NCBI GenBank assembly: GCA_963718585.1
Contig: OY970357.1
Coordinates: 210,001-242,000, forward strand
Source of the DNA: Candidatus Saccharimonadota bacterium
Lineage (GTDB): Bacteria; Patescibacteriota; Patescibacteriia; 2-12-FULL-60-25
DNA: 32,000 bases
Direction: 5' to 3'
The notes under the pieces were generated by a model. That model was not told the DNA's origin and did not search any database. It saw only the letters and a list, made by a program, of their open reading frames with translations. The translations under genes and the position numbers were made by a program. Positions 3,994-24,630 of the stretch are shown one piece after another; positions within the stretch are counted from its first letter, which is position 1; each line of letters begins with the position of its first letter.

Positions 3994-5356
3994 ATGCCTT
4001 CAACGCCGTTGCAAGCGCTTCGCGGAGGCTTGCGGCTTCGATGACCGCGAGTCCGGTCGGAGCGCGTTTTCCCTGACCCTTCGGCACGATGACGCGTGCG
4101 AATCCCATGCGCGCGAATTCTTTCAGGCGCATCTCCGGGAGCGGGACAGGTCGCAGTTCACCGGCAAGACCGATCTCGCCCATGACGCCGAGCCGTGGAT
4201 CCAGTGTTATATCTTTGACCGCACTCGCGATCGCGACCGCGAGGGCGAGGTCCACGCTCGGATCCCGCGCATCGATCCCTCCCGCCGCGTTCGCGTAGAC
4301 ATCTTTGTCCAATGCCTGGATGCCGGCGCGGCGTGCCAGGACGGCGAGCAGCATCCCAAGGCGTGCGGTGTCGACGCCGGTCGCGCGACGGACCGGTGTC
4401 CCGTAGCCGGCTGGGGAGACGAGCGCTTGGATCTCGATCAACATGGGCCGGTGCCCTTTCAACAGGCAAGCGACCGCGGAACCGGGCGCTTCGCGTGGTC
4501 GGTCGCGCAAGAGTTCTTCTGATGCATCAAGGACCGGTTCAAGACCGCGTTCGTTCATGCGCAGGAGGGCGACCTCGTCCGTCGGTCCGAAACGGTGTTT
4601 GAGCGCTCGCAACAGACGCGCCCGATGCTGTCCGTCGCCTTCGAGGAAGAGGACGGTGTCGACGAGATGCTCCAACACGCGCGGGCCGGCGACGTCGCCG
4701 TCTTTCGTGACCTGGCCGACGAGGATGATCGGGATGTTGCTGTGTTTTGCGGTCTCGGCCAGGGTCGCGGCGCACGCTTTGACCTGTGCGACGCTTCCCG
4801 GTTCCCCGTTCATGTCCGTGAGACGTAACGACTGGATCGAGTCCACGATCACGAGTGATGGACGTTCGGCGTCCAACGTCGCCGCGATCGCGGCCGCATC
4901 CGTATCGTCGAGGAAGTGCAGGGTGTCGGGGATCTGCGCGGAGAGGCGGAGGAGGCGTCGGCGGATCTGCGCCGGTGATTCCTCGCCTGTCACGTAGACG
5001 ACCTTGCGTCCCGCTTTGGCTGCAGCGATCGCGCACTGCGCGAGGATCGTGGATTTGCCGATCCCAGGTTCGCCCGCGAGGAGCGTCACGGATCCGTCGA
5101 CCAGACCGCCGCTCAAGACCGCGTCCAGCGCATCCATTCCGGTCTTGCGCGCATCTGCGGTGACGGAGGGCTCGGTCTTGGCGCTGACGAGCGGAACAGC
5201 CTTCCCTGACCGACGTGCGGCGGGTTGATCCGTCGCCGTCATTTCTGCCTCTTCGGTCAGCGTGCCCCACGTGCCGCATTCAAGACAGCGCCCGGACCAT
5301 TTACTGGTCTGGGCGCCGCACTTCGTACATGCGTAGAGGGTCGAGGTCTTGGCCAT
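3992..5356 (-). CDS. radA: DNA repair protein RadA/Sms
   Basis: Zinc finger CTKCGAQTSKWSGRCLECGTWGT, Walker A GEPGIGKST, KHRFG motif and a Lon-like C-terminal domain. Start set at ATG 5356, which has a GAGGA SD (5364-5368) 7 nt upstream. The 42-codon extension to 5482 overlaps the upstream gene. Confidence 0.95.
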   Translation of the reverse strand: MAKTSTLYACTKCGAQTSKWSGRCLECGTWGTLTEEAEMTATDQPAARRSGKAVPLVSAKTEPSVTADARKTGMDALDAVLSGGLVDGSVTLLAGEPGIGKSTILAQCAIAAAKAGRKVVYVTGEESPAQIRRRLLRLSAQIPDTLHFLDDTDAAAIAATLDAERPSLVIVDSIQSLRLTDMNGEPGSVAQVKACAATLAETAKHSNIPIILVGQVTKDGDVAGPRVLEHLVDTVLFLEGDGQHRARLLRALKHRFGPTDEVALLRMNERGLEPVLDASEELLRDRPREAPGSAVACLLKGHRPMLIEIQALVSPAGYGTPVRRATGVDTARLGMLLAVLARRAGIQALDKDVYANAAGGIDARDPSVDLALAVAIASAVKDITLDPRLGVMGEIGLAGELRPVPLPEMRLKEFARMGFARVIVPKGQGKRAPTGLAVIEAASLREALATALKA

Positions 5357-5376
5357 GCGTCCATCCTCGCTGTTCG

Positions 5377-7404
5377 TCACTTTTTTTGCAACGGGGGACA
5401 GTCTTTTAGGGTGGGGTTGCAGGCGGCCCCGCGGATACCAGACGAGCGATATAGCCCCCATGAAGTGCAGGCCGAAGTACAATCGATCGATGGGAGTTTC
5501 TTGTTCGGATCGGTCGTGGCCGCGTTCACTTCTGCACGTCTTTGATTCTCCGTTTCACATGTTGCGCGATCCAATCCCCAGTCGCCTCGACAGATACTCA
5601 GCGCTTGCTTCTTGATCGTTATTATCGGATTTTCTGGATTGTCTTTGATGCATTTGAGGGTCATCGCCGCCCGTTGCGCCGATTGCCCGCTCGCTTGGCC
5701 CGCAAAATGGGCCCATACACGGCTGATCGTGCTGGGAAGTGAAGGATTCGCATTCCCGACGTTCGCTTTGACGATCATCATCGTACTCCAGATGCTTCCG
5801 TAGACGCTCAATAACTGTGGTGCGTTAAAACAGATCCCTGCGATCTTTACGGACGGAATACCACCTTCGCACCAGGTACCTGGCTGGAAGACGGTCGTTT
5901 GGCCACCGCCGATTCCGTGGCTGAATCGCCAGTCAAGACCCAATTGCGGTTGGGATGCGTCGAAATGATCATCGTTTCTCGGTGCGGCCTTCGAGCAATT
6001 GTCGTAGTTTTTTACACTCGCTTGAAGATCCGCTCCCGTCGCGCATTTGGGGTATCCGCGTCCTCCGCATGATTTCGTACAGGCAGGGAATGACTTACCG
6101 CTATAGGTTTTTCCAGACTCTAGATATCTCTTTCCAGACCCGCTCCAGAATGCGAGATATTTTCGATCCGTATCCGGGTCTTTCGATGCCAGGAATTTTG
6201 CCGCGTTCCACCCGGAGACCCATATGCCATAGGCAAATTCGTCATGTCCGATGACCATAGGCAGTGCTGAGCCCCCGGTTTCATAATTGAACGCGGTCAC
6301 CGCGTAGCAGGAAGGGATCCCAAACCGTTTGCCGATCGTCGTGGCGCAGTCGATCTCGGATTGCAATGTTGGAAGGCCACCGACACCATAGACGATGTTG
6401 CATTCAGATGGATTGTATCCATTCGCGATCGCGCTTTGTGGGACGGGTGCGGATGGCGACGAAGGGGAAGGGGAAGGGGAAGGGGAAGTGGGTACAGGCG
6501 TTTGTACGGGGGGTTGGCTACCGAGTTCTTGATTCTGTTCTTGGAACTGAGTCGTGTCTCCCGGGTTTGTGACGCTTCCACTCGGCGTCCCCGCATTCTT
6601 GATGATCTGCTTCCAGTCGTCCACGGGTATGTATTCCAGATTTTCCGGGGTGACGACCTGGACATCGAGAGATTTGAGAGATGTATCCAGATTTGGGATG
6701 ACGGTCCGGAGGATCGTATATGTTCCGAGGACGAGGACGAGGCCCCAGAGGGCATCTCGTACGGCGCGTTTGCCGGCCTCGGTATCATCTATGGTCACGC
6801 CCATGAGATACCGTGATCCGCCCCAGATGAGTCGGATCGCTGCGGCGATCAGCGTGACGCCGAGAACGAAGTTGAAGAAGCCTCCGATGTATTGGGCGAG
6901 AAAGGGAAGTGATGCGATCCCACTGCTAAACGGAACGTCCGCCGTGAAGTTGACGCCTGGGATCGGGATCCCGAGCGTCGGAACGATGGCTTGGAACGTA
7001 TTATCTCCTTGGGTGATCTTCACCTGGGCCCCGGGCTCGACATACACCGCCGCATTCACGGGTCCGATCGTGCACTTTCCTCCGTTCGATATGAGTGTGC
7101 AGTCCTTGGTCGATAGTGGAGAGCCTTCGCAGGTGTAAGTCTTTAGCGCAGGGTTATCGACTTTGGAGACGAGTTCATCGCATGTGACCGTTGAACTGGA
7201 GAGGCAGACATTCGCCTTCTGATCCGCCGCAGGATGGCATAGGCAGCATGAGGCGGCAGAGACGGCCGAGGGAAAGATGAGCACACAGAGAGCTAGGATC
7301 CCGACGCGGTGCAGGAACCATTTCGTCGGACCGGAAAGACCGCCGGTGGGGATTCGACGTCGTTCAGGGATCTTCCAAGATATCCTCGGTGACAGAAGGC
7401 CCAT
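5377..7404 (-). CDS. P1: secreted 8-Cys module, pilin-type two-helix anchor, SP-rich linker and a 350-aa Cys-rich C-terminal domain of unknown family
   Basis: 675 aa. Signal-like h-region VGILALCVLIFPSAVSA. CCLC-containing 8-Cys module (about 7072-7251). LGIPIPGV motif. Anchor LPFLAQYIGGFFNFVLGVTLIAAAIRLIWGGSRYLMG...GKRAVRDALWGLVLVLGTYTIL (about 6700-6912). Linker PVPTSPSPSPSPSSPSAP. The C-terminal domain has many Cys residues. Paralogous to P2 and P3. Confidence 0.8.
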   Translation of the reverse strand: MGLLSPRISWKIPERRRIPTGGLSGPTKWFLHRVGILALCVLIFPSAVSAASCCLCHPAADQKANVCLSSSTVTCDELVSKVDNPALKTYTCEGSPLSTKDCTLISNGGKCTIGPVNAAVYVEPGAQVKITQGDNTFQAIVPTLGIPIPGVNFTADVPFSSGIASLPFLAQYIGGFFNFVLGVTLIAAAIRLIWGGSRYLMGVTIDDTEAGKRAVRDALWGLVLVLGTYTILRTVIPNLDTSLKSLDVQVVTPENLEYIPVDDWKQIIKNAGTPSGSVTNPGDTTQFQEQNQELGSQPPVQTPVPTSPSPSPSPSSPSAPVPQSAIANGYNPSECNIVYGVGGLPTLQSEIDCATTIGKRFGIPSCYAVTAFNYETGGSALPMVIGHDEFAYGIWVSGWNAAKFLASKDPDTDRKYLAFWSGSGKRYLESGKTYSGKSFPACTKSCGGRGYPKCATGADLQASVKNYDNCSKAAPRNDDHFDASQPQLGLDWRFSHGIGGGQTTVFQPGTWCEGGIPSVKIAGICFNAPQLLSVYGSIWSTMMIVKANVGNANPSLPSTISRVWAHFAGQASGQSAQRAAMTLKCIKDNPENPIITIKKQALSICRGDWGLDRATCETENQRRAEVNAATTDPNKKLPSIDCTSACTSWGLYRSSGIRGAACNPTLKDCPPLQKK
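6461..6490 (-). repeat. Hexanucleotide tandem repeat (GAAGGG x4 plus one imperfect unit) encoding the (SP)n linker
   Basis: The + strand reads gaaggg gaaggg gaaggg gaaggg gaagtg. The minus-strand translation is PTSPSPSPSPS. Confidence 0.9.
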
Positions 7405-7442
7405 TTATCGCGTATAATATCGTATATCCGCAGGAATGGACA
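7389..7442. promoter_or_regulatory. Overlapping divergent promoters for P1 and P2 sharing one AT-rich -10 core
   Basis: Plus strand: GTGACA (7389-7394), 18-nt spacer, TATAAT (7413-7418). Minus strand: TGTCCA (7442-7437), 17-nt spacer, TATTAT (7419-7414), then 9 nt to the P1 ATG at 7404. Confidence 0.45.
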
Positions 7443-8885
7443 CATGAGTATCGTTCGTCTCATTCGAAGGCTTCAGAACGCCGTGCCTCGCACAGCTGTC
7501 TTTTTTGTTTTGCGATCATCGCGTCGTTTACGTTCGCGCTCCCTGTCTTCGCGCAACAGGACGCGACGTATCAAGTTCCGAACCTCGGCGTTCCGATCCC
7601 GGGGGTGGATCTCGCGTCGAATCCGTTGGTCTACCGAGATGGGACGATCTCAGTCCCGTACCTCGCGACGTATATCGGCGGCGCCTATAACTATCTTATC
7701 GGCGTTTCCATCATCGCGGCGGCGATCATGATCATCTGGGGTGGTTTTCGCTACCTGCTCGGTTCAACGCTCGGAGATGCACAGGCGGGGAAGGAGAAGA
7801 TCAAAGACGCCATCATCGGGCTCTTTTTGATCCTCGGAAGCTACACGCTGCTTACGACACTCGGAGGTCCGTCGCTGACGACGTTTCAGCCGTTGAATCT
7901 CGATATCGTGAGTCAGGAACAGTATGAGGCGCAGATCGATAGCGGTGGCGTGCCGATCGAATATCAGACCGGTCAGGTCGTGAGTGGACATCCGGATGCG
8001 TCTATTCCGACGCCGAGTACTGCCGTGACGGCGACCAGTCAGATCCCGCCAAGTCCAGGTGGTGGCGCAGCTCCGGCCTTTTCCGGAAAAGATGTCTCCG
8101 GCTTGGGCAAGGGGTGTACGGTCGATTCCAAGTACCACCTCCCAGGCCCCGGCTGTTCTGGGGCGGCGTGTCAGACAAGGTTTTGCGTCAATAAGGATTA
8201 CAACATTCCTGGCATTCCATCGATCACGAATATGGTCGGGTTCCAGGGGATCTTTCCGAACACATTCGGCGAGCAGATCACGGAGAAGGGTTTGACGTTC
8301 GTCGTTCCCACGAATCCGCAGTGTTATAGCAAAGCGGGGTGCGATGCATCGAAGTACATGGATATCGACATCTTGGGGCCGCGTGCGAAGGCGACGTTGA
8401 AATGGCGGATGGACGGGACGATGGTCTTCCAGCCAGAGGCGCGTGATGCATTGATCCGCGCAGGAGCAGAGGCGAAGAAGGAGGGGTATTTTCTCGTGAT
8501 CGGGTCAGGGACACGATCCGTCAAACAACAGGCGGAGGCATACTGTTCGCGTATAAAGACCAAAGGTAGTGCGCTTGGTCTCGCCTTGCCGGGATATTCG
8601 AATCATCAATTGGGCATTGCAGTCGATATCGGCCTCTTTAAGTTGGAGAACGGCCGCATCCATCTTTTGACGTTGACGGGCGGGATCTGCGGACAGGTTT
8701 CGAACCAGAAATATCTTGGTGCAGACAAGCTATCAGCCTTAGAGCAGATCATGGCTTCTGCGGGATTCAAACATATGTGTCAGGAGGTGTGGCATTTCGA
8801 CTACCAAGGCGTTTACGCTGTTGACTGCAACTCCTGCGTCTTCCCTGGATCGATGGCGACCCGAGAGGCGAAGGAATGCAAGTAA
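7389..8885 (+). CDS. P2: pilin-type two-helix anchor fused to a VanY/peptidase M15 zinc D-Ala-D-Ala carboxypeptidase domain. Start uncertain, possible frameshift.
   Basis: 498-aa ORF. Signal peptide ...CFAIIASFTFALPVFA/QQ. LGVPIPGV motif. Anchor VPYLATYIGGAYNYLIGVSIIAAAIMIIWGGFRYLLG...GKEKIKDAIIGLFLILGSYTLL (about 7650-7868). C-terminal M15 motifs GSGTRS..QQ (8505-8530), SNHQLGIAVD (8598-8627) and EVWHFDY (8787-8805). The only in-frame start is GTG 7389. ATG 7444 has an SD but is in another frame (see findings). Confidence 0.85.
   Translation: MTEGPFIAYNIVYPQEWTHEYRSSHSKASERRASHSCLFCFAIIASFTFALPVFAQQDATYQVPNLGVPIPGVDLASNPLVYRDGTISVPYLATYIGGAYNYLIGVSIIAAAIMIIWGGFRYLLGSTLGDAQAGKEKIKDAIIGLFLILGSYTLLTTLGGPSLTTFQPLNLDIVSQEQYEAQIDSGGVPIEYQTGQVVSGHPDASIPTPSTAVTATSQIPPSPGGGAAPAFSGKDVSGLGKGCTVDSKYHLPGPGCSGAACQTRFCVNKDYNIPGIPSITNMVGFQGIFPNTFGEQITEKGLTFVVPTNPQCYSKAGCDASKYMDIDILGPRAKATLKWRMDGTMVFQPEARDALIRAGAEAKKEGYFLVIGSGTRSVKQQAEAYCSRIKTKGSALGLALPGYSNHQLGIAVDIGLFKLENGRIHLLTLTGGICGQVSNQKYLGADKLSALEQIMASAGFKHMCQEVWHFDYQGVYAVDCNSCVFPGSMATREAKECK
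7683..7737 (+). repeat. Left arm of a 55-bp inverted repeat (53/55 identical) inside the P2 anchor coding region
   Basis: gcctataactatcttatcggcgtttccatcatcgcggcggcgatcatgatcatct equals the reverse complement of 10283-10337 apart from 2 mismatches. The flanking sequence is only roughly two-thirds identical. Confidence 0.9.
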
Positions 8886-8915
8886 TGAAGAGGCGGTCGT
8901 TGTGCTACCTCTGTG

Positions 8916-10763
8916 TTATGGCGACGCGGAACCCGTGTCCGCGGGTTGGAGATCCATGCAACACCGGAAGCCGATCTCATAGCTTCGGAATCCGATCGGG
9001 GCATGCGGTCCGCCGCTTGAGGCGTAGCAGGTAGGCTGGGTCCCCGGATCGCCGAGGTGAAAGAGGGGATTGAAGTAATACCCGCGCCAGGACCAGTCTT
9101 TACCGCAGACCCATCTGTTGTTCTGGATACAACTCGAGCTCTTGAGACTCGAGAGCGTTTCGTTGATCCGCTGTTGGGAGGTCTTTTTCGCGTCCGCGTC
9201 TTTGACCGTGATCTCGGTCACGTTCCCGTTCAGGTCATAGACACCTTCCGGCGTGACGCATGTGGGTCGAGAGCCGCTCGGGATGACATATTGGGACCAC
9301 TTGTCACCCGCCTCCTTTCGCATGGTGTCGTACTCACTCTTTATGTGGCTGAGCTTGGTCCCGAGGGACGCGTTCCCGCCCCCATTTGCCGCATCGATCT
9401 TTTGCTGGATGTACGCATCGAAATCCGGATGCGCAAGGATGCTCTCCAGCGGGTTGTATTCTTCCAGCGCATAGAAATCGAGCATGGAGTGGAGTTTGCT
9501 CCAGGTAACAAGAGAACGGACGTATTGATCGTAGTTACATGGCGCAGGCTGCCGACTCATATCCTTGGAGATGGTCTTGATATATCCGCCGGGACCGCCT
9601 TTCTTCACGTTCGACACCCAGGCTTGACCCTTCACATAATCCGGCCCGTACCCGTAGGTATTCGTCCCTTCCGGACCGAGGCAAGCGCGCGTCCACTCGT
9701 TCGACGTGCAGAGACGCTTCCCTTGAGAGGAGCAGTACCACTCGGCTTCGATCTCGGTCACGCCGTTGAATGGTTTTACGCCGGCCTGATTCGGAGCCTC
9801 GAACTTGTCCATGCAGAAGGAATTCACATGCGCCGAGGTCGCGTGTGCCTTCGCTTCATGCGTCTCGTATGCGGAGCTATATGGAACGGGGACCATATCG
9901 CTCGGACAGGTCTGGGCGATGAGGTTGCCGTTTTGATCCTTGACGACAGTGCCGGGAGAGGGTGGGGTCGGGGTCGACGAGGGTTGCGGTGAGGGCGGAG
10001 TCTCGCCCGGCACGACGACCTGAGCGGGTTTACCGGTCGTCGGTGCCGGAACGGTTGACGCCGCAGTGACGCGGTTGACCTCGGCAGATGGACTGCTGAA
10101 GGCTTGGAGGGACGTGAGGTCCACGTTGAGGATGGAGGGGTTTGCAATGGTCGGATTGACCACGGAGACGATGGTGTAGGTTCCCAGGATGAGGATCAGG
10201 CCGATGAGCGCGTCCCAGATGATCTCTTTCCCGCGAGACACGCTCCCGGCGGTCGAACCGAGGATATAGCGGAACCCGCCGTAGATGATCATGATCGCGG
10301 CCGCGATGATGGAAACGCCGATGAGATAGTTATAGGCCGCCTGGATGTACAGCGCGAGATATGGCGTCTGGGCCACGCCTCCTCCAGCAGGGACCTCGGT
10401 CGGAAAGGTGAGTCCCGGGATGGGGACATTCGGTTCGATGGGGATGTGCGTGGTGGGTTCTTTGGTGCCGACCGTTGACCCATAGGTCTCGGCGTTCGCG
10501 ACCTCTGTACAGGCACCTCCGTTATCCTTTGGCTGGCACGCCTGGTCGTCCAGCTGGGCTGAGCACTTCACGTTCGCGAGGTTCGGATTCAGGACGGCCG
10601 TTTTGATCGTGTCGCAGGTCGCGGTCGTTTGAAGGCAGAGATATCCTTGGACGGATACGGTCTCACACCGGCAACACGTCGCGAGTGCGACGTTCGGTGC
10701 CAAGAAAAGTGAGATCAGGGAAAACGGGAGGAGGGCGAATGCCTGACGGAACGAGCGTCGCAT
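8916..10763 (-). CDS. P3: secreted 8-Cys module, pilin-type two-helix anchor and a formylglycine-generating-enzyme/SUMF1-like (FGE-sulfatase) domain
   Basis: ORF 8916-10796 starts at a GTG. ATG 10763 is preferred: it follows the dsbA-like stop as TGAtATG and gives the signal peptide MRRSFRQAFALLPFSLISLFLAPNVALA. CCRC 8-Cys module (about 10509-10679). VPIPGL motif. Anchor TPYLALYIQAAYNYLIGVSIIAAAIMIIYGGFRYILG...GKEIIWDALIGLILILGTYTIV. C-terminal domain (about 8958-9911) shows MVPVP, FCMDKFEAPN, EAEWYCSSQGKRLCTSNEWTRAC, GVYDLNGNVTE and IGFRCC. Confidence 0.85.
   Translation of the reverse strand: MRRSFRQAFALLPFSLISLFLAPNVALATCCRCETVSVQGYLCLQTTATCDTIKTAVLNPNLANVKCSAQLDDQACQPKDNGGACTEVANAETYGSTVGTKEPTTHIPIEPNVPIPGLTFPTEVPAGGGVAQTPYLALYIQAAYNYLIGVSIIAAAIMIIYGGFRYILGSTAGSVSRGKEIIWDALIGLILILGTYTIVSVVNPTIANPSILNVDLTSLQAFSSPSAEVNRVTAASTVPAPTTGKPAQVVVPGETPPSPQPSSTPTPPSPGTVVKDQNGNLIAQTCPSDMVPVPYSSAYETHEAKAHATSAHVNSFCMDKFEAPNQAGVKPFNGVTEIEAEWYCSSQGKRLCTSNEWTRACLGPEGTNTYGYGPDYVKGQAWVSNVKKGGPGGYIKTISKDMSRQPAPCNYDQYVRSLVTWSKLHSMLDFYALEEYNPLESILAHPDFDAYIQQKIDAANGGGNASLGTKLSHIKSEYDTMRKEAGDKWSQYVIPSGSRPTCVTPEGVYDLNGNVTEITVKDADAKKTSQQRINETLSSLKSSSCIQNNRWVCGKDWSWRGYYFNPLFHLGDPGTQPTCYASSGGPHAPIGFRSYEIGFRCCMDLQPADTGSASP
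10283..10337 (-). repeat. Right arm of the 55-bp inverted repeat, inside the P3 anchor coding region
   Basis: The + strand agatgatcatgatcgcggccgcgatgatggaaacgccgatgagatagttataggc is the reverse complement of 7683-7737 with 2 mismatches. Confidence 0.9.
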
Positions 10764-10764
10764 A

Positions 10765-11457
10765 TCAGGACTTGATGAACGCATCGAGCGCGGCACGGAC
10801 TTCCTCTTCGGTCACGGCTCCGACGAATGCCTTCGTGCCGACGAAGATCGTCGGTGCGGTGTCGAGGCCGTCGCTGCGCGCCTGATCCGTCTCTGAGATG
10901 AGAAAATCTCGTAATTTGGGGTCATTCTTACAGGTGCTTATCTGGTCCGTATTGAGATGAAGCGCGTTCGAGATGGTTTGATAGACTCCGCTATTCAGGC
11001 CGTTCGCTGACAGAAGCGCATTGTGCGCGTTCCAGAACTGCCCCTGTTCTCCTGCGCAGATCGCAAAGGCCGCAGCTTCAAGGGCATTCTGATGAACGCT
11101 ATAGACGGGAAAATCCTTCCAGACATAGCGGACTTGGCCGCCGTATGAGGCAACGACCTTTCGGAGGAGCGTGTCCGTCGTTTTGCATGTGTCGCACTCA
11201 TAGTCACCGAATTCGATGACCGAGGCGACAGAGGTCGGGCTTCCATAGAGGATCTGATCCGTGCTGGAAAGTGCCGGGGGATGGAGCTGTGACGCATCGA
11301 CCTGCTTCGGCAACAAGATGGAGCGAACATCTTGGGGCGGGAGACCACCCAAGAACGTGTTCTGCGAGGTCAGGACCGCGCGCGTGATCAGCCAGCCGCT
11401 GACCCCGAGGGAGAGGACCACGAAGACGGCGAGAATGATGAAGCGCTGGCGGTTCAT
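10765..11457 (-). CDS. Membrane-anchored DsbA-family thiol:disulfide oxidoreductase
   Basis: 230 aa. N-terminal TM FIILAVFVVLSLGVSGWLI. Thioredoxin-fold motif IEFGDYECDTCK (CxxC) and a later cis-Pro-type region TAPTIFVG. The stop is 1 nt from the P3 ATG, and the start is 3 nt after the upstream stop. Confidence 0.8.
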   Translation of the reverse strand: MNRQRFIILAVFVVLSLGVSGWLITRAVLTSQNTFLGGLPPQDVRSILLPKQVDASQLHPPALSSTDQILYGSPTSVASVIEFGDYECDTCKTTDTLLRKVVASYGGQVRYVWKDFPVYSVHQNALEAAAFAICAGEQGQFWNAHNALLSANGLNSGVYQTISNALHLNTDQISTCKNDPKLRDFLISETDQARSDGLDTAPTIFVGTKAFVGAVTEEEVRAALDAFIKS

Positions 11458-11460
11458 ACG

Positions 11461-12699
11461 TTACTGGAGTTTGTAGCTATACAATTGTCCGGTCACGGCA
11501 TCCGTAAAGATGAGTTTGCTTTGGTCTGCGGAGACGACGGGCGCTGAGATGGGGATGTTCTGATCCGGGATCGGGACCTTTTGTGAGACCCCCGTGTTCA
11601 GGTCGATCTTGTAGACGTCATCTGGGTAATCCACGAAGTCCGAGCGTTGGATGCCCGCGTTTGCCGGCAGGTTGCGCGGCACACCGCAGTAGATGACCGA
11701 GTCAGACGCCCAAGCGCACTTATCTGCCCATGTTTCGATATGCAGGTTCGTCCGGTCGGCACCGATGGACGCGGGGTTGGACGAGGCGATCCACAGGTCT
11801 GGTTTTGCATTTGATTCAGGGCTCCAGACGCTGAACAGGAGGTGATTGCCGGATGGCGACCAACTTGGGAGAAAGTCTGCCCCGGGAGCGGTCAGGAACG
11901 GGAACTTCTCTTTGTTCTGTCCGATGAACAGGATGTCTTGCTGGAGAGAACCGCCAGGGAGGGTGTTGCTGTCCGGTACATATCCGATGATCTGTCCAGA
12001 CGGAGACCAAGAGACCTGAGCGCTGTTCACGTTGTCACCCAACTCCTGAACGGCCTTTGCCTCGGTCCCGTCCGGATTCGAAACGATCAGGAAGCGGTTA
12101 CTGGGATCGACGCCGACGCTTTTGGCGGCGACCTTTGTATCGTTCGGTGAGAAGTTGAAGTCATTCCAGTGCGCGGGGAGATTGACCTGTTGATCCGTAT
12201 TGAAGTCGTAATAGAGTTTGGATCCATCTGGGAAGTTGACGATGGCCTTGTCGGTCACGTTCCCCCAGTTCACGTTCGAGACGTTATAGAATTGTTTATT
12301 GCTCAGAGCGGTGACCGTTCCATCATCGGCGATCCGGTAGAAGCGGCCGTCACCCGGGTTATAGAACCGGGTTCCGTTCTTGTCCGGAGATGGGGAGATG
12401 TCCATGGTCTGGCTGTCGAGGAGGAGTTGAACTGGGGATGAAGCCTGTGCCGTGGTCGGTTGGACATTGACGGTCGGAACACCGGCTTGCGGGAGTCCGC
12501 CACCCGTCGTCGACGTCGTACTGATCGGCACTCCCGTCCCAGCCTGTGGAAGATTTCCTGTTGGCGTTGAGGTCGCGGTCTGCGTCGGGGCCGTCGGTAC
12601 TTGAGCCCGGAAAAAGAGCCAGTAGAGGAGGTATCCCATCGCGACCGAAAAGGTCACAAAAAAGACGGCGAAGAGGATCTTTTTCATCCGTTCAGACAT
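11461..12699 (-). CDS. Membrane-anchored PD40/TolB-like beta-propeller repeat protein
   Basis: 412 aa. N-terminal TM ILFAVFFVTFSVAMGYLLYWLFF. Thr/Pro-rich linker. Repeated SP(D/S)G-type blades (SPSPDKNGTRFY, FSPNDTKVA, WSPSGQIIGY, WSPSGNHLLF). A TATACT box and GAGG lie just upstream of the ATG. Confidence 0.6.
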   Translation of the reverse strand: MSERMKKILFAVFFVTFSVAMGYLLYWLFFRAQVPTAPTQTATSTPTGNLPQAGTGVPISTTSTTGGGLPQAGVPTVNVQPTTAQASSPVQLLLDSQTMDISPSPDKNGTRFYNPGDGRFYRIADDGTVTALSNKQFYNVSNVNWGNVTDKAIVNFPDGSKLYYDFNTDQQVNLPAHWNDFNFSPNDTKVAAKSVGVDPSNRFLIVSNPDGTEAKAVQELGDNVNSAQVSWSPSGQIIGYVPDSNTLPGGSLQQDILFIGQNKEKFPFLTAPGADFLPSWSPSGNHLLFSVWSPESNAKPDLWIASSNPASIGADRTNLHIETWADKCAWASDSVIYCGVPRNLPANAGIQRSDFVDYPDDVYKIDLNTGVSQKVPIPDQNIPISAPVVSADQSKLIFTDAVTGQLYSYKLQ

Positions 12700-12755
12700 A
12701 TGGCCTCAGTATAGCGGTTTTTACGGGCAAACGGTAGCGACTTTGCGTGGTCGCA

Positions 12756-15700
12756 TCAGAACAACTTGGTGATATGGAAAAGGAGCGAGCCGGCGTACCC
12801 GAGGATCGCGACGACAATGATGACGACGAATGTGCAGCAGCATTGGGGAGGCATGAACAGCGAGTTCGCGCAGATCCCCATATCGACACAAACGGTCAGC
12901 ATGTCTTCTGGACACGATTGCTCGAACATTTCGGCGAGGGCCATTCCTTTTTGGACCCCTGATGCAATAAGCGGATCCTCGATGTTCGATTGTTTGGCGG
13001 CGAATCCGATGCCTTTGACGAAGTATTTATAGACGAACTGCAGATTCAACTGAAGGATAAGGACGAGGAGTGAGATCCCCACATCTTCCGGCGCCGTTCC
13101 GAGCTCTGTCATTTCCAGAGCACCGCGGGCGCCAGCTTGGGTCGCTTTCGCTCCCGTCTTTGCCGCCTGTTGAGTGAGTTTGAGAACGCGTTTTTTCAGC
13201 TCTTGTTGGACGCGTTCGCGCGCTTTCTTTTGGAAATCTCGTTGACGCTGCGATTCGTATCGTCGCGCCTGTGCACTCTCGTCCGGTCCTTCCATCTCTT
13301 CCTCCTCTTCGATCTCTTCGATATACGGAACTTCGGCTTGTGTGACCTCAAATGGAGGGAGCGCTTCCGCCGTTGGAGCTCCTTCTGCCTGACCGAGGAA
13401 CTGACGTTGCGTCCGCATCTGTTGGACACGAAGCGCACGGGCGCGTTCTGTCTCTTCTTCCGGGGTGAGGGTCTCTCCGACCCCTGCTCCGGCGATCGGA
13501 GGGGGGATCGCTGCTCCGCCGGCCGCATAACTCTGAAACGGTTCTTCCATGGATGTGGAACCGAGAAGCGGCTGTTCGACGGCGCCACCTCCACCACCAG
13601 CGCCAAAGGAGATGCTGTTGTCTGAAAGGGGAGTATCTCTGGAGAGTGTCGGGATCTCTGTATTCCCTCCGCGTTCGCGCGCAACCGTGGAGCGCCGTTG
13701 CAGGGCGAGGAGCCCCATTGCCGCACCGAGCGGTGCGCCTTCTGGGCCGATCCCGCGGATCTGTTGAGGGCCCATGCGCCCGAGTTCGGGTGGGGGAGGG
13801 GCTTGCGGCCCGGGACGCTGCTGGGCGTGCGTCATGCGCGCGCGTGTCTGATCCAGGACGGAGGCGAATTCCTGCTCCTGTTCACCGCGGGTTACGGCGG
13901 TCGGCGGAGCGGGTGCGTTCGTTTCCAGTTCCGTACCGATCGGGGCTGACGGAGCAACGACTGGGAGGGATTGGTCCTGTTCCCAGGTCTCGATCCGTTG
14001 AAGCGAAGCCGCGTCTTCCGGAAGCTGGCCGTTAAAATGGACCACGCCGTCTTGATAGGTCTGGAGATAGGTATCCAGATCCTGGAAGCGCTGGTCCACC
14101 GGTCCGGACGCCGCGGCGTCGCGGATATGCGAACGGACATTCCGGATCTGGTCGCGGATCGCGGAGCGGCGTGCTTCCGGCACGACGAGATGACCGCCTG
14201 CGCCGGTCGTCGCATTCGCGCGGACCTGGGCAAGGACCGTGTTCGCTTGTTGGGCAAGTCCGTTCAACGTGGCGGTCGCTGTCCGTTGTTGTTGTGCCGT
14301 CAGCGCAGACGCAGCGGCAAGCGCCGAGCCTGCGACCGCAGCGAGCGGGGCGAGGGCCGTGCCGACCGAAGGGGTGGTGATCGTCGCGGCTGCCTGAAGC
14401 ACGGAGGCGGATCGAGCGATCGGCGCCTGGATGTGTGCGATGACCTCCGTGTCCGCGGCGATCGCGGCCGGGATGTTCGGTACCTCTGGCGGAGGGATGC
14501 GGAGTTCGGGAAGCCGCGTCAACGCGCGTTGAATGTTCGCTTGGAGATCGTTCAGCCGACCGAGGGCTGCCGCCGCAGCCGGAGATCCCGAGACGATCCC
14601 GGATGGAAAGGAGGTCTGTTTGATCCGACGCTGGAGGTCCATGATCCGTTGATCGACGTCCGAGAGCGCGGCGATCTTCGTGTCCACGTCTTTTTGGAAG
14701 GTCGGTAATCGATCCGAATAACGCAATGTCGCGTCAAGCGGTTTTTGGATCTGTTCTTCCGCGACGCGCGCGACCTCGGCAGATTCCTGTTGGATCTGGC
14801 TCAGCGTCACGGCCTCCGGTGCCTGCGGCGCCACCTTCGTCTGCGGCGCCGCGCGTTCGACTGCTTGTCGGAGACCATCCTCCGCCTCGGCGTTCGCATC
14901 AGATGACAGAACGCGTTCGACGGCCTTGGTGCCGTCTGGCGCCGTCACGACGCGCGTCGAGGATCGATCGACCTTGGTCGCGTAGTCATCGATACCTTTC
15001 CGGAGGGTCGCGATCTTTTCGAGCTTCTCATCGATCGCTGTATTCGTGGGACTTTGTGCGCGTTGCGGTGTCTTTTTCGTCGCGGTCTCGTCGGAAAGGG
15101 TCTGAAGGTTCGTGGACACGCGCCGCATGGTCGCGAGGGTGTTCTCGATCCGTTGCGTGTTCTCCCGGTCGAGATCCGGTCCTTTGAGGACGGCCTCGTT
15201 CGCTTCGGTCGCGAGTTCCTCGATGCGTTCGTCCGTTTCGTCTTTGGGCGCAACGGAAACGGCGGCAGGTGCCGGTGCACCGGCGGCAGTCTCTTCGGTG
15301 ATCCGGGTCCATTCACGGTCGATCGCTTCAAGGGAGCGGTCCTGTTCGGTCTTTGGTCGTGTGGCGGGCGTTTCGCCCCGCACCGTTCGGTCCGTGGCCT
15401 CGCCCCGCGCGGCCGCTTCCGTCGGAGCGGCAGACGCTTCCGCCGGACGCGTCGCGGTCGGAGGTGTTTTGGTCGCGGCCTCTGACGATTCCTTCTGCGC
15501 CTCCTTCTTCAGCTCACCCTGCTTGTGTTCCACGGCACCTCGCCAGGAACGGACATAGTCTTTAAAGGTCTGTTTGTCGGGGTCGAATTTTCCTCCGCCT
15601 GGTAATTCGATCTCGGTCAGATCTCCGCGGAGGAGGGCTTTCTTCACGTTCGTGAGTGAACCGACGAGACCTTTGAGGTCCGCGTCATCCGGATGATCGT

Positions 15701-16247
15701 TGACCATCTTCCGCAAACTCTCGCGGACGCTGTTGAGGCCGTTGACGGCCGTCCGTCGTCCCGCGGCAAGTTTTTTTCGATCTTCGTCCCAGTTCTGATA
15801 TTGCGATGACTTCCAATCCTGATATCGCGTTTTGAAGTCAGAGAACCGTTCCGAGAATCGGTCTGCGGCGCGTTTGCGTTCCGCGCGGCCCGCTTTGCCT
15901 TTGAGCTTCTGTGTGTCTTCCAGGGCTTTGCGCGCGTGTTGGAGATCGAAGAAGGAACCGGCGAGGGAGCTGTTCAGGGAGCCGAGTTCCGGATTCCATT
16001 TACTCTGGACGTCATTGGAGAGATTTCGGACCACGGATCCGAATTGGGTGAAGCCGGCGCTCGTGCGCGATGCGAGATTATCCGCATTCGTCGTGCCGGA
16101 TCTGGAGACATCATCAAACTTCCCCACGATGCCATCGAGGGGCGTTGCGTATTTGTCGAGGCCGAGATTCGCCCGAGCACCGAGCGAGGAGATCTGATCG
16201 ACGCTATCTCCGAGCGACTCCAGCGGCTGAAATGCGGCATTGTCCAT
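12756..16247 (-). CDS. Giant (1163-aa) Ala/Gln/Glu/Arg/Thr-rich, probably coiled-coil protein with a C-terminal Cys-rich two-helix membrane tail; no family recognised
   Basis: ORF 12756-16298. The TTG 16298 start lies inside the clpC terminator, so ATG 16247 is preferred. There is no N-terminal signal peptide. The C-terminus reads VGISLLVLILQLNLQFVYKYFV...SCPEDMLTVCVDMGICANSLFMPPQCCCTFVVIIVVAILGYAGSLLF. Confidence 0.75.
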   Translation of the reverse strand: MDNAAFQPLESLGDSVDQISSLGARANLGLDKYATPLDGIVGKFDDVSRSGTTNADNLASRTSAGFTQFGSVVRNLSNDVQSKWNPELGSLNSSLAGSFFDLQHARKALEDTQKLKGKAGRAERKRAADRFSERFSDFKTRYQDWKSSQYQNWDEDRKKLAAGRRTAVNGLNSVRESLRKMVNDHPDDADLKGLVGSLTNVKKALLRGDLTEIELPGGGKFDPDKQTFKDYVRSWRGAVEHKQGELKKEAQKESSEAATKTPPTATRPAEASAAPTEAAARGEATDRTVRGETPATRPKTEQDRSLEAIDREWTRITEETAAGAPAPAAVSVAPKDETDERIEELATEANEAVLKGPDLDRENTQRIENTLATMRRVSTNLQTLSDETATKKTPQRAQSPTNTAIDEKLEKIATLRKGIDDYATKVDRSSTRVVTAPDGTKAVERVLSSDANAEAEDGLRQAVERAAPQTKVAPQAPEAVTLSQIQQESAEVARVAEEQIQKPLDATLRYSDRLPTFQKDVDTKIAALSDVDQRIMDLQRRIKQTSFPSGIVSGSPAAAAALGRLNDLQANIQRALTRLPELRIPPPEVPNIPAAIAADTEVIAHIQAPIARSASVLQAAATITTPSVGTALAPLAAVAGSALAAASALTAQQQRTATATLNGLAQQANTVLAQVRANATTGAGGHLVVPEARRSAIRDQIRNVRSHIRDAAASGPVDQRFQDLDTYLQTYQDGVVHFNGQLPEDAASLQRIETWEQDQSLPVVAPSAPIGTELETNAPAPPTAVTRGEQEQEFASVLDQTRARMTHAQQRPGPQAPPPPELGRMGPQQIRGIGPEGAPLGAAMGLLALQRRSTVARERGGNTEIPTLSRDTPLSDNSISFGAGGGGGAVEQPLLGSTSMEEPFQSYAAGGAAIPPPIAGAGVGETLTPEEETERARALRVQQMRTQRQFLGQAEGAPTAEALPPFEVTQAEVPYIEEIEEEEEMEGPDESAQARRYESQRQRDFQKKARERVQQELKKRVLKLTQQAAKTGAKATQAGARGALEMTELGTAPEDVGISLLVLILQLNLQFVYKYFVKGIGFAAKQSNIEDPLIASGVQKGMALAEMFEQSCPEDMLTVCVDMGICANSLFMPPQCCCTFVVIIVVAILGYAGSLLFHITKLF

Positions 16248-16262
16248 GCCGTGATCATTATA
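16248..16262 (-). promoter_or_regulatory. Consensus -10 box TATAAT, 9 nt upstream of ATG 16247
   Basis: The minus strand reads gggTATAATgatcacggcATG (box at 16262-16257). No good -35 element. It follows the clpC terminator. Confidence 0.35.
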
Positions 16263-16296
16263 CCCGCTGCGCGCGATGTGGGGAGGAGGGGAGACC

Positions 16297-16324
16297 AAAA
16301 ACGGAAGCGAGGTTCGCTTCCGTT
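16297..16324 (-). terminator. Rho-independent terminator of clpC
   Basis: Perfect 11-bp stem (16300-16310 pairs with 16314-16324) with a 3-nt loop. On the minus strand it is followed by a T-run (tcgcttccgtttttgg). It lies 16 nt after the clpC stop codon. Confidence 0.75.
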
Positions 16325-16340: not shown

Positions 16341-18809
16341 TTACCGCGCTTTGAGTCCGGTGGCGGTCGCGGTCAGGGCGAGTTTCCGTTTGCGAGGTTT
16401 TTCAGCGAGGAGTTTGGAGATGAGTGCCGTGACCTCGCGTTCAACGATCCGTCGGATGGCCCGCGCGCCTTCCTCCGGCGGCATGGGCTGTTGGAGAAGC
16501 CACTCCAAGACGTCGTCCCCTGCGGAGCAGGCGACGCGCTGAGCTTTTTCGACGCGCACGAGGATCTCATCCAGTTCCCGTTTGAGGATGGCGCGCATCA
16601 CTTCTTTCTTCAGCGGTTTGAAGACGACGACGCGGTCGAGGCGGTTCAGGAGCTCCGGTCGGAGTCGCTGGGCCAGTTCGTCTTTGACCACGGACTCGAA
16701 TTCATCATTCGCATCGCCGAAGCCGAGTGCTTTTTTGCCCAGCCGATCGCTGCCGATATTCGAGGTCAGGATGACGTAGGTATGGCGGAAGCTGACCGGC
16801 CGGCCGGTGCTGTCCGTGATCTTTCCGTCTTCCAGGATCTGGAGCAGGACGTTCTGCACATCGCCGTGTGCCTTCTCGAATTCGTCGAAGAGCACCACGC
16901 TGTGCGGACGTTTGCGTACCGTGTCCGAAAGTTTATTCGCGTCACGGTAGCCGACATACCCCGCGGGCGCGCCAATGAGTTTTGAGACCGTGTGTCCTTC
17001 GGAGAATTCGGTCATGTCGATCTTGATGAGCGCGCCTTCGCGACCGAAGATCTCTTTCGCGAGCAGGCGGGCGGTCTCGGTCTTCCCTGTGCCGGACGGA
17101 CCGACAAGGAGGATCGCGGCCTTCGGCCGGTTCGGGTCACCGAGACCGAGGCGCGAACGCGTGACCACGTCCGCGATGGCCGCAAGTCCTTCGTCTTGGC
17201 CGACGATCGTCTGTTGGAGGTTTGCTTGGAGCGCACGAAGCCGCTGACGTTCGGTCGCGAGGACGGTCTCAAGATCGATCCCGGTCGCGCGCGCGACCAC
17301 GCGGGCCACGTCTTCTGCGGTCACGTTCGGACGGTCCTTGCTGCGCGCTTCCTCCGCGGCCTTGGCCAGTGCGGCGTGTTCCTTGGCGTACCGCTCTGCT
17401 TCTTCCGCATACCGTTCAGCTTCCTGCAATTCGCCATTGTTCACCGCTTCTGCCTTGGCTTCTTCCGCGGCGCGCAAAGCGATCTCCAGCGAGGTCAGTC
17501 GTTCCATCCGTTCACTCGATTTTCGGCGCGCGTTGACGTGCGCGGCCGCCTCATCGATGAGGTCGATCGCCTTGTCCGGGAAATGTCGGTCCGTGAGATA
17601 TCGTTCGGCCAACAGGACCGCAGCCGGTAGGACCTCGGGCTCGTATGTCACTTTGTGATATTCGGCATAGAACTCCACGACCCCCTTGAGGATCCCGAGG
17701 GTGGCTTCCGTGGATGGCTCCTCGACCGTGACGGCTTGGAAACGGCGCTCCAGCGCGGCGTCCGGTTCGATGAACTTCTTATATTCGGCCCAGGTCGTCG
17801 CGCCGACGCAGCGGATCTCGCCACGAGCGAGTGCGGGTTTGAGGATGTTGGCCGCATCGAGCGAACCGGTGGTGGAGCCGGCACCTACGATGTTGTGGAC
17901 CTCGTCGATGAAGAGGATGACGTTCGGATCGTTCCGCGCTTCATCCATGATCTGCTTCAAGCGCGCTTCGAATTCACCGCGGTACATGGTGCCGGCGACG
18001 GTGAGTGCGAGGTCGAGGGAGAGGAGGCGCTTCCCGCGCAGGATGTCCGGCACATCGCCACTGGCGAGCCGCTTGGCCAGTCCTTCGACGATCGCGGTCT
18101 TCCCGACACCTGGTTCGCCGAGGAGGACGGGATTGTTCTTGGTGCGACGGCAGAGGATCTCGACCATGCGTTCCAACTCGGTCTCGCGTCCGATCACCGG
18201 ATCAAGCGAGTCTGCGATCTCCTGTTTGGTGAGTTCACGCGTGAACGATTCGAGTGCGGAGACGCGCGGGGCGCGCTGCGACTGTGCCGGACGAGGGAGG
18301 TCGCCGATGCGCGCGTCCGGTTCTTCCGGCATCTCGTTCACGCCGCCGAGTTCCGGGAAGCGCGACGTCGACTTGAGGACCTGGATCAATTGCTCGCGCA
18401 ACGCGCCGAGATTGACGCCCTGCGCCTCAAGGAAGACGTTCAGCTCCGTGAATCCGCCTTCGAGGACCGCGGCGAGCAGATGTTCCGTCCCGACGTATTT
18501 ATGTTCGTACAGATGTGCGGTCAGGACGCACTTTTCGATCACGCGTTTGACGGCCGGGGAGAGATCCGGGGTCGCGACCGCGTCACTTTGGGACGGCGTT
18601 CCACGGAAGGCGTCTTCCGCCTTTGCGAGCGCCACACCCTGCTTCAACAGGATCTCCGCGCCGATCGAGCCTTTTTCATGTAAAAGGCCGACGATGAGAT
18701 CGCCAGGCTCGACAAGCTCGCGGCCATTCAGGATCGCAAAGCTCAGCGCTTTTTGGAGCGCTTCTTTCAGGTGGGTGGTGAATCGGTCGAGGAGGTCAGG
18801 AGTCAGCAT
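16341..18809 (-). CDS. clpC: ATP-dependent Clp protease ATP-binding subunit, ClpC-like class I AAA+
   Basis: 822 aa. Clp_N repeats at the N-terminus, Walker A GEPGVGKT in D1, a short coiled-coil M domain, GPSGTGKT in D2 and an ALGFG candidate ClpP-docking loop. Confidence 0.9.
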   Translation of the reverse strand: MLTPDLLDRFTTHLKEALQKALSFAILNGRELVEPGDLIVGLLHEKGSIGAEILLKQGVALAKAEDAFRGTPSQSDAVATPDLSPAVKRVIEKCVLTAHLYEHKYVGTEHLLAAVLEGGFTELNVFLEAQGVNLGALREQLIQVLKSTSRFPELGGVNEMPEEPDARIGDLPRPAQSQRAPRVSALESFTRELTKQEIADSLDPVIGRETELERMVEILCRRTKNNPVLLGEPGVGKTAIVEGLAKRLASGDVPDILRGKRLLSLDLALTVAGTMYRGEFEARLKQIMDEARNDPNVILFIDEVHNIVGAGSTTGSLDAANILKPALARGEIRCVGATTWAEYKKFIEPDAALERRFQAVTVEEPSTEATLGILKGVVEFYAEYHKVTYEPEVLPAAVLLAERYLTDRHFPDKAIDLIDEAAAHVNARRKSSERMERLTSLEIALRAAEEAKAEAVNNGELQEAERYAEEAERYAKEHAALAKAAEEARSKDRPNVTAEDVARVVARATGIDLETVLATERQRLRALQANLQQTIVGQDEGLAAIADVVTRSRLGLGDPNRPKAAILLVGPSGTGKTETARLLAKEIFGREGALIKIDMTEFSEGHTVSKLIGAPAGYVGYRDANKLSDTVRKRPHSVVLFDEFEKAHGDVQNVLLQILEDGKITDSTGRPVSFRHTYVILTSNIGSDRLGKKALGFGDANDEFESVVKDELAQRLRPELLNRLDRVVVFKPLKKEVMRAILKRELDEILVRVEKAQRVACSAGDDVLEWLLQQPMPPEEGARAIRRIVEREVTALISKLLAEKPRKRKLALTATATGLKAR

Positions 18810-24596: not shown

Positions 24597-24630
24597 GTTG
24601 GACAAGGTCCTTTTCGCAAAGGAGGTGGAT

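Follow-up and report, generated by a model that had tools for sequence, protein, structure and literature searches.

A large part of the diversity of bacteria belongs to the Patescibacteria, which apparently live attached to other cells, and the ways in which they remodel their envelope or open a host are almost uncharted. Arrays of VirB2-like pilin genes are known in these bacteria and are essential in Southlakia epibionticum (PMC10633639, PMC12102498, PMC12857230). [quoted passage not shown] A census of 2025 counted any match to the Pfam family PF18895 (T4SS_pilin) with more than 50% profile coverage as a VirB2 protein, and extra domains were not examined. The present analysis concerns a locus of a Candidatus Saccharimonadota bacterium in which a hairpin of this family lies inside three much longer proteins, P1, P2 and P3. 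The locus is contained in the window, a stretch of 32,000 nucleotides (nt) of contig OY970357.1 (positions 210,001 to 242,000) with a G+C content of about 60%; the public contig to which the window belongs is 1,084,458 bp long. It is a vertically inherited Patescibacteria envelope locus situated between clpC and radA and has four constant parts: a protein designated X, a PD40 propeller, a DsbA-like protein and the anchor fusions. The architecture of the fusions is very probably that of a battery of tethered wall hydrolases.

Each of the three proteins has an N-terminal hydrophobic, signal-like segment and, by hydropathy, two helices of transmembrane (TM) grade. The helices are part of an anchor of 105 amino acids (aa), which is 48-56% identical among P1, P2 and P3 and has 37 invariant columns including the PIPG motif. 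The anchor is laid out as xLxVPIPGL, about 15 residues, PFLAQYI, helix 1, GGFRY, a short turn containing K/R, helix 2 and NP. In a search of 5.8 billion proteins P3 picks out P2 with E = 1.4e-24, so that their likeness is far beyond chance, and the three proteins are, as judged from their anchors, paralogues. Helix 2 is followed by a linker of about 60-90 aa rich in Pro, Ser, Thr, Gly and Ala, and then by a domain of 300-350 aa that is different in each protein. The common signal peptide, PIPG motif and helix pair, as well as the Pro/Ser/Thr linker and the three different domains, had been described in an earlier reading made from the letters of the window without database searches (the sequence-only reading). 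Its coordinates of the open reading frames (ORFs) and the helix segments quoted in it agree exactly with the translations. The parts of the three proteins are:

5377-7404, minus strand: P1, 675-aa maximal ORF; signal peptide, 8-Cys module, pilin-like hairpin, linker and a possibly lysozyme-like C-terminal domain
5380-6432, minus strand: C-terminal domain of P1, 351 aa, without Pfam match and with a confident AlphaFold2 (AF2) model
6685-6996, minus strand: anchor of P1, with PIPG motif, two-helix hairpin and NP motif
6997-7245, minus strand: N-terminal Cys-rich module of P1 (CCxC..., eight conserved Cys)
7389-8885, plus strand: P2, 498 aa, GTG start uncertain; signal peptide, pilin-like hairpin, linker and M15 peptidase
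7563-7877, plus strand: anchor of P2 (PF18895, 35.4 bits; PF04956, E = 0.0018)
8430-8810, plus strand: M15 (VanY/LdcB-like) peptidase domain of P2, with the motifs SNHQLGIAVD and EVWH
8916-10763, minus strand: P3, 615 aa; signal peptide, 8-Cys module, hairpin, linker and FGE-sulfatase fold
8916-10796, minus strand: P3 from an alternative GTG start at 10796, 626 aa
8919-9950, minus strand: C-terminal domain of P3, FGE-sulfatase fold
10143-10448, minus strand: anchor of P3, with model helices 107-140 and 144-174 and paired strands on either side
10449-10679, minus strand: N-terminal Cys-rich beta module of P3 (AF2 model)

The relationship of the hairpin to the VirB2-like pilins was examined with PF18895, the gathering threshold of which is 26.6 bits. 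P2 scores above this cut-off (31.1 bits for the full-length protein and 35.4 bits for the anchor alone), P3 by itself scores below it (19.0 bits) and P1 gives no match. P1 and P3 are nevertheless evident paralogues of P2, their anchors being 48-56% identical to that of P2. PF18895 is matched by 33 of 34 diverse anchors of the family and by 21 of 22 proteins of the P1 class (E <= 0.01-0.05). Five of the 34 anchors also match PF04956 (TrbC/VirB2), the best of them at E = 4.6e-5 and all below the cut-off of that family. At the level of the Pfam family the anchor is, by its sequence, a pilin. The earlier assignment of all three anchors to PF18895 is consequently upheld for P2 and for the family at large and not for P3 and P1 scored by themselves. 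A profile search of the PDB sequences with the anchor returned no pilin. Foldseek comparison of a model of the anchor and N-terminal module with the PDB returned no solved pilin and only generic helical hairpins with E >0.4, including designed binders, ATP synthase c and NuoK. The fold is too simple to be informative, and this structural check of the pilin assignment speaks neither for nor against likeness to VirB2; the hidden Markov model (HMM) of PF18895 places the anchor in that Pfam family. The fusions do not have the size of stand-alone pilins (675, 498 and 615 aa for P1, P2 and P3), and the usual T4SS neighbourhood is missing. No VirB4-, VirD4- or VirB6-like gene was found in the 32-kb window, as the sequence-only reading had stated. 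Around some 20 related loci, out to about 10 kb, neither VirB4, VirB6 or VirD4 nor a short pilin gene was found.

For a membrane anchor the hairpin is conserved to an unusual degree, with a mean column identity of 56% in the 34 anchors, which were drawn from clusters of less than 50% identity. Anchors are 52.6% identical within a genome across payloads, as the domains behind the anchor are called here, 48.5% identical across genomes for the same payload and 45.4% identical otherwise, a pattern indicating that conservation of the anchor is independent of its payload. No claim is made for homogenisation of anchors within genomes or gene conversion, the effect being small (52.6% vs 48.5%).

The family membership and conservation of the hairpin bear on an explanation in which it still works as the pilin module of a T4SS. 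The enzymes would then either be docked at the T4SS assembly site, where they would open a local hole as VirB1, PrgK and CwlT do, or the hairpin would be drawn out of the membrane and would, at low frequency, be incorporated into an enzyme-displaying pilus of the VirB2 type. In solved F-type pili both termini of the pilin face outward, so that display at low occupancy is geometrically conceivable. The placement of the anchors in PF18895 and, weakly, in PF04956, the very high conservation of the hairpin and the SLT, NlpC/P60 and CHAP-like payloads of the family, which are the repertoire of VirB1 and PrgK, agree with this explanation. Furthermore, most Patescibacteria genomes with VirB2 homologues are without a recognisable VirB1 (PMC12102498). 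Bulky domains on both termini of every subunit are, however, incompatible with a homopolymeric pilus, Foldseek found generic hairpins in place of a pilin, and the T4SS genes and short pilins are missing from the window and from the surroundings of the related loci. Retention of the pilin function is unlikely on balance. An extended form of it, in which the fusions are 'armed' VirB2-type pilins, is decidedly unlikely: a T4SS-like machine encoded elsewhere would extract the hairpin and insert it into a pilus of the conjugative type, either sparsely or at its tip or base, and the hydrolases and the lectin-like FGE-fold module of this pilus, carried to the host wall, would breach it. If true, the essential but unexplained T4SS and pilin arrays of Patescibacteria would have a definite function, and enzymes joined to VirB2-class pilins would have been found for the first time.

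Fusion is the norm in a large subfamily and not an oddity of this genome. An exhaustive HMMER search with the three anchors over 1.84 billion representatives (clusters at 50% identity) gave 14,254 proteins at E <= 1e-3, of which 1,570 reach E <= 1e-10. Protein lengths were seen for the best 150 of the 14,254 matches, and nearly all of these are 350-930 aa long with a median of 522. The parts following the anchor fall into at least 14 unrelated payload classes, among them:

NlpC/P60-like: 32 members
P1-like: 23 members
Class 3: 21 members, no identity assigned
M15/VanY: 20 members; class 8 is related
FGE-fold: 14 members
Peptidase_C39_2: 11 members
Class 7: related to the P1 class
Glucosaminidase (+SLT_2): one class
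SLT: two classes
Amidase_2: one class

According to these domain assignments, the same anchor carries essentially the whole peptidoglycan-hydrolase toolbox, and this repertoire is what most strongly supports a wall-active role of the fusions.

The payload of P2 is assigned most firmly. It matches the Pfam family VanY at E = 9.8e-10 (38.8 bits against a cut-off of 25) and, in the PDB, the LdcB-like YodJ (4ox3) at E = 3.5e-6; VanXY and the phage L-Ala-D-Glu peptidase Ply500 are matched as well, the PDB matches ranging from E = 3.5e-6 to 6e-5. The zinc and catalytic motifs are intact (SNHQLGIAVD and EVWH, corresponding to H-x6-D and E-x-x-H). Within the M15 class (n=20), SxHxxGxAxD is present in 14 proteins and ExWH in 19. 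P2 has extra Cys-rich insertions, with 14 Cys. The prediction of an M15 (LdcB/VanY-like) peptidase acting on the wall is solid.

P3 matches FGE-sulfatase (PF03781) at E = 1.3e-8 (35.3 bits against a cut-off of 23.3) over residues 333-395 only. A profile of the FGE class matches pFGE (1y4j) at E = 1.1e-4 and FGEs at about 6e-3. The alignments cover the central core alone, and the C-terminal segment of P3 (...GFRCCMD) is not alignable to the FGE active site. P3 carries a divergent FGE-sulfatase fold, and the domain more likely binds or modifies than cuts.

The 351-aa C-terminal domain of P1 has no match in Pfam, NCBIfam, PHROG or the PDB sequences, and a profile of its class likewise found nothing in the PDB sequences. 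Its AF2 model is confident (pLDDT 86.8, pTM 0.85). Foldseek comparison of this model with the PDB gave no significant match (best E = 1.3); at the top are SltB3, the endolysin Pae87, a phage lytic transglycosylase and lysozyme. In BFVD the best match has E = 0.24, and about half of the top 50 are GEWL, SLT, GH19 or endolysin proteins. Around the helix with the catalytic Glu, hhalign gave 31% for the P1 class against the SLT class of the anchor family and 27% against its glucosaminidase class. Glu51 of the domain is nearly invariant and follows a helix in the context GIPxC...E(T/S)G, and one of the 22 members of the P1 class has a weak SLT match. Taken together, the model and alignments make it somewhat probable that the domain is a very divergent lysozyme-like glycosidase, and a wall activity of P1 is suggestive. 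A prophage lysin or a defence system was considered and rejected, P1, P3, X and the PD40 protein being without PADLOC or PHROGs match. The M15 and FGE-sulfatase-like domains had been recognised in the sequence-only reading, and both were recovered by Pfam. Its view that the three payloads are wall-active enzymes fared unevenly: it is solid in the case of P2 and suggestive in that of P1, and it has no support for P3, the fold of which has no known lytic activity.

The N-terminal part of the fusions is also distinctive. P1 and P3 have in common a module of about 80 aa with eight Cys (CCxC...) between the signal peptide and the hairpin, which P2 and its orthologues do not have. The pattern, CCxC...C...C...N...C...C...GGxC within about 70-80 aa, is present in 81-99 of 157 family members; the CCxC motif occurs in 81 of these proteins and an even number of Cys in the N-terminal module of 130. 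The module has no Pfam match and is modelled in P3 as a small beta-rich domain (pLDDT >90). In the AF2 model of the N-terminal half of P3 (pLDDT 90.4) it is followed by the long hairpin, the helices of which (107-140 and 144-174) are joined by a three-residue turn. Short strands on either side of the hairpin pair with each other in this model, so that the two ends of the hairpin are predicted to emerge on the same side. Cys accounts for 3.2% of the residues of the family and is nearly absent from the hairpin, a distribution that fits extracytoplasmic disulfide-bonded domains and a dedicated DsbA. The C-terminal domains are predicted to lie outside the cell from the signal peptide and the two TM helices. 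The sequence-only reading had placed them there, and the hydropathy, the Cys pattern, the adjacent DsbA and the hydrolase payloads agree with a placement that is still a predicted one.

The three remaining parts of the locus are encoded on the minus strand upstream of P3:

10765-11457, minus strand: DsbA-like thioredoxin, membrane-anchored, with CDTC active site
11461-12699, minus strand: PD40/TolB-like beta-propeller, membrane-anchored
12756-16298, minus strand: giant X protein, 1180 aa from TTG; 12756-16247, 1163 aa, from M18
12789-13673, minus strand: conserved X module (residues 876-1170 of the ORF of 1180 aa), with homologues among the X proteins of relatives

The DsbA-like protein matches Thioredoxin_4 (70.4 bits) and DSBA (37.2 bits), with E = 2.8e-19 for Thioredoxin_4/DSBA, and has a CDTC motif and a single N-terminal TM segment. 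On the strength of the HMM matches, the CxxC motif and its predicted extracytoplasmic placement it is assigned to the DsbA-type oxidoreductases. The propeller protein has a Pfam PD40 match; the TolB model is matched at E = 7.4e-8, far below its cut-off, and the only matches in the PDB are designed propellers. The giant X protein has no signal peptide and consists of a long low-complexity/coiled region and a C-terminal two-TM hairpin with a Cys-rich loop, in line with the membrane tail of the 1163-aa protein noted in the sequence-only reading. It has no Pfam match, no PDB match and no detectable relative of known function. In its conserved module an acidic stretch and a basic helix are found together with two TM helices and a loop that contains Cys; the module is homologous to X proteins of 277-309 aa in the related loci L001, L003 and L005. 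Over its whole length the giant is homologous to the 1020-aa X of L002, and the start of the latter agrees with M18 (16247). At the X position of L009 there is a 258-aa gene without Pfam match.

The genes are tightly packed. The PD40 stop codon (TAA) is followed after 3 nt (cgt) by the ATG of DsbA, and the DsbA stop codon (TGA) after 1 nt (t) by the ATG of P3; a 4-nt overlap joins the DsbA gene to the fusion gene in relatives. The close linkage of DsbA and propeller to P3 claimed earlier is borne out by these junctions. P2, on the plus strand, converges with P3 at a distance of 30 nt. It is uncertain which codons start P1 and P2, because their maximal ORFs (ATG 7404 on the minus strand and GTG 7389 on the plus strand) diverge and overlap by 16 nt. 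In the public gene call P1 begins at GTG 7284 (635 aa), by which its signal peptide is cut short. Inside both ORFs, at 7389-7418, there is a sigma-70-like site close to the consensus (GTGACA-18-TATAAT, 11/12 matches); it was not relied on, there being no in-frame ATG, GTG or TTG for P2 downstream of it. In a scan for promoters and terminators, sites were no more frequent than in shuffled sequence.

The conservation of the locus was examined on contigs encoding relatives of the window proteins, in two GTDB genomes and in 17 metagenome loci (9-sequence anchor alignment). In every locus long enough to judge (about 20) the order is [PGM-LemA-HtpX]-ClpC-X-PD40-DsbA-(1-4 anchor fusions)-RadA-[RecG], and nothing else is interposed between clpC and radA. 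The co-occurrence that the sequence-only reading had proposed as a check is thereby seen for the fusions, DsbA, the propeller and the C-terminal module of the giant. The housekeeping proteins of the relatives have diverged to about 52-70% identity with those of the window, which indicates that the locus is old and vertically inherited. In the window itself the minus-strand order is HtpX, ClpC, X, PD40, DsbA, P3, P1 and RadA, with the following boundaries:

3992-5482, minus strand: radA, maximal ORF; 3992-5356 from the probable start M43 (MAKTS...); conserved locus boundary
16341-18809, minus strand: clpC, conserved locus boundary, outside the system
18971-19870, minus strand: HtpX

The payloads of the locus vary. 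Across orthologous loci at least 8 payload classes are found, in 1-4 copies, and most complete loci pair a peptide-cutting payload with one of the glycan type, to which an FGE-fold protein is often added. Examples are:

Window and L001: FGE, M15 and P1-like
L008: class 7, FGE and M15
L016: P1-like and two NlpC/P60-like
L009: a single C39_2
L005: four fusions

At the position of P1 beside radA, L003 encodes a 628-aa protein with a glucosaminidase-like payload (L003:533-2419). This protein was rejected as an orthologue of P1, as it has no similarity to the P1 C-terminal domain, and the difference from the window at this position means that payloads are exchanged behind a constant anchor. Two GTDB genome records that carry the full clpC-X-PD40-DsbA-fusion-radA locus (L007, CAZPAP010000013.1, and L008, CAZLVV010000002.1) are titled 'uncultured Gammaproteobacteria bacterium'. 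Between their ClpC and that of the window the identity is 56-58%, and they are almost certainly mislabelled metagenome-assembled genomes of Patescibacteria.

Exchange of payloads at orthologous positions behind an anchor that carries at least 14 unrelated C-terminal classes would also be expected of a polymorphic toxin-like competition system, with a constant N-terminal delivery module and swappable C-terminal toxins. Such systems would have cognate immunity genes after the payload genes, and no small immunity-like gene follows P1, P2 or P3 in the window or the fusions of the relatives. The locus is core and syntenic rather than mobile or of changing position, with neither recombination cassettes nor orphan toxin modules seen and without defence-system matches (PADLOC), and a two-TM hairpin serves to hold a protein in place and not to set it free. 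A toxin system of this kind is therefore hardly probable at all.

The same variation can be read as that of a host-directed arsenal. The tethered enzymes would reach through the thin wall of the epibiont and cut host peptidoglycan at the contact zone, opening access for feeding or for other machines, and the payload cassettes would vary with the wall chemistry of the host. The differences in payload class and copy number between loci with identical flanks, the Pro/Ser/Thr tethers of about 60-90 aa and the N-terminal Cys-rich module, which may be an adhesin, are in favour of this explanation, as is the link of the pilin family in Patescibacteria to a T4SS essential for epibiotic growth (PMC10633639, PMC12102498). 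The enzymes are, however, anchored beneath the wall of the producer itself, no immunity or inhibitor gene is visible, and a fixed position in the core genome with constant partners suits housekeeping equally well. Attack on the host is a possible but doubtful explanation.

The preferred reading is that of wall hydrolases held at the membrane of the producer. The exo-proteins would be exported by Sec and their signal peptides removed. The hairpin would span the cytoplasmic membrane with its short basic turn on the cytoplasmic side. VirB2-type propilins have the same arrangement, with the hairpin in the membrane and the basic turn inside. Both the N-terminal 8-Cys beta module and the C-terminal enzyme, the latter on its Pro/Ser/Thr tether of 60-90 aa, would be outside, where the co-translated DsbA would form the many disulfides of the exo-proteins. 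P2 would cut stem peptides as an M15 peptidase, P1 would cut glycan strands by means of its divergent lysozyme-like fold and conserved Glu, and P3, with an FGE / C-type-lectin-like fold, would bind or modify. X would combine a cytoplasmic region with its C-terminal hairpin in the membrane. Since the hairpin of the exo-proteins is too conserved for a passive anchor, the enzymes would dock through it to a partner that is constant in the membrane, which may be the X hairpin, the propeller or a T4SS encoded elsewhere and which would position or gate them. The target would be the wall of the producer, to be opened or remodelled in a controlled manner, generally or locally. This wall was chosen because it is the nearest substrate for a membrane-tethered enzyme, because immunity genes are missing and because the locus is core. 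The choice of the target is evenly balanced, and the complete statement that includes it is held with middling confidence.

Several observations weigh against this reading. The payloads vary in type and number between orthologous loci, a pattern that typifies arsenals aimed at a host or competitor more than it does housekeeping autolysins, and tethers of about 60-90 aa could carry the enzymes beyond the wall of the producer. The positive-inside support for the topology is mild: the loop of the hairpin has about 2.4 K+R (plus one conserved Arg just outside) vs 1.0-1.4 per 20 flanking residues, and it carries acidic residues too. The lysozyme-like assignment of P1 is derived from matches that are individually non-significant (Foldseek E = 0.24; hhalign 31%). 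The FGE fold has no known wall-lytic activity, which leaves a wall-active role of P3 unsupported, and although this fold was taken as the commonest payload, the class counts list 14 FGE members vs 32 NlpC/P60-like ones. The roles proposed for X and the propeller are guesses that have no basis other than synteny.

The rest of the window is occupied by housekeeping genes (LemA, phosphoglucomutase, Mur ligase, M50 protease and PheS/T), with RecG and MscS beyond RadA, both on the plus strand. The radA ORF reaches 42 codons upstream of its probable start, so that 5377-5482 belongs both to it and to the 3' end of P1. If the inner start is used, about 20 nt lie between P1 and radA, which are on the same strand and may be co-transcribed. 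Two ORFs between the Mur ligase, M50 protease and PheS genes, 23172-24605 (minus, 477 aa) and 26213-27718 (minus, 501 aa), have no Pfam match; opposite-strand ORFs overlapping them are likewise without match, and all of these are candidate genes. The sole tRNA of the window, a tRNA-Arg (GCG anticodon) at 694-770, lies upstream of the MscS gene. As it is not adjacent to the locus, the latter shows no sign of being an integrated element. A PheS identical to that of the window is encoded on a 5376-bp contig (L012, Logan ERR11571143) of a different sequencing run, so that this organism, or one nearly identical to it, occurs in that sample. In another contig (L011:2-4495, Logan SRR22387764) the anchor family occurs in a different setting. 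Behind a fusion of pilin and NlpC/P60 come a protein of 618 aa, in which 3-4 pilin hairpins in tandem are combined with an SLT domain, and then a beta-propeller. All of these adjoin yidC, rnpA and dnaA, that is, the replication origin, which according to the literature is a frequent T4SS site in Patescibacteria.

Close relatives of the window proteins are labelled 'hypothetical protein [Patescibacteria group bacterium]', and this NCBI label covers a large branch of the pilin family that does not consist of free pilins, at least 150 clusters (50% identity) being visibly fusions. The branch appears to be a conserved carrier for at least 14 kinds of extracellular domains, mostly peptidoglycan hydrolases, with a dedicated DsbA, a TolB-like propeller and a tail-anchored protein. 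Censuses that count every PF18895 match as a pilin should be read with caution. The fusions are a testable candidate for the 'missing VirB1' of Patescibacteria, and the P1 class and classes 3 and 7 are a candidate source of new wall-lytic folds. No published description of pilin-hydrolase fusions, of the 8-Cys module or of the X-PD40-DsbA-fusion locus was found in a literature coverage that is incomplete, and the claim that the fusions were undescribed stands to this extent.

Among the closest described systems, the LdcB, VanY and VanXY peptidases of the M15 family (PDB 4ox3, 4mph, 4f78) share with P2 the motifs SxHxxGxAxD and ExxH. The members known so far occur in soluble form, as lipoproteins or with one TM segment as their anchor, and none is known to be borne on a pilin-like hairpin, whereas P2 is so borne and has Cys-rich insertions. 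FtsEX with CwlO, RipC or EnvC, and Tol-Pal with the PD40 propeller of TolB, are membrane complexes that control wall hydrolases. The likeness is one of analogy only, in that a membrane component with a cytoplasmic part and a periplasmic scaffold position or activate wall hydrolases; no homologues of FtsE/FtsX, TolQ/R/A or Pal are found here. In modular type IV pilins such as PilB and PilC of Streptococcus sanguinis, a pilin module is grafted to a functional module. The concept of a function carried by or next to a filament subunit is similar. Those pilins, however, belong to an unrelated class with a class III signal peptide and a prepilin peptidase, and their grafted modules are adhesins rather than wall hydrolases; no prepilin motif of the G|FTLxE type is present in the fusion proteins.

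The VirB1-type hydrolases of Gram-positive T4SSs (PrgK of pCF10, TraG of pIP501 and CwlT of ICEBs1) resemble the fusions in having an N-terminal membrane anchor and SLT, NlpC/P60 or CHAP-type domains on the outer face of the membrane (PMC12102498). They have a plain single TM segment, usually with two hydrolase domains, and are encoded inside T4SS operons, whereas here each protein has one payload and a pilin-family hairpin as its anchor, with no T4SS genes nearby. The VirB2-like pilins of Patescibacteria themselves (PF18895; S. epibionticum, TM7x; PMC10633639, PMC12102498) likewise have a signal peptide and two hydrophobic helices with a short basic turn; divergent paralogues stand side by side, as in the reported arrays of 2-11 pilin genes. 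The hairpin described here differs in that it is part of proteins of 440-930 aa with a C-terminal enzyme and, in many, an 8-Cys module, in its extra conserved PIPG and NP flanks, and in the position of its genes between clpC and radA with DsbA, PD40 and X and not beside virB4. Compared with all of these systems, each domain is of a known kind, and the combination and the conserved locus are new.

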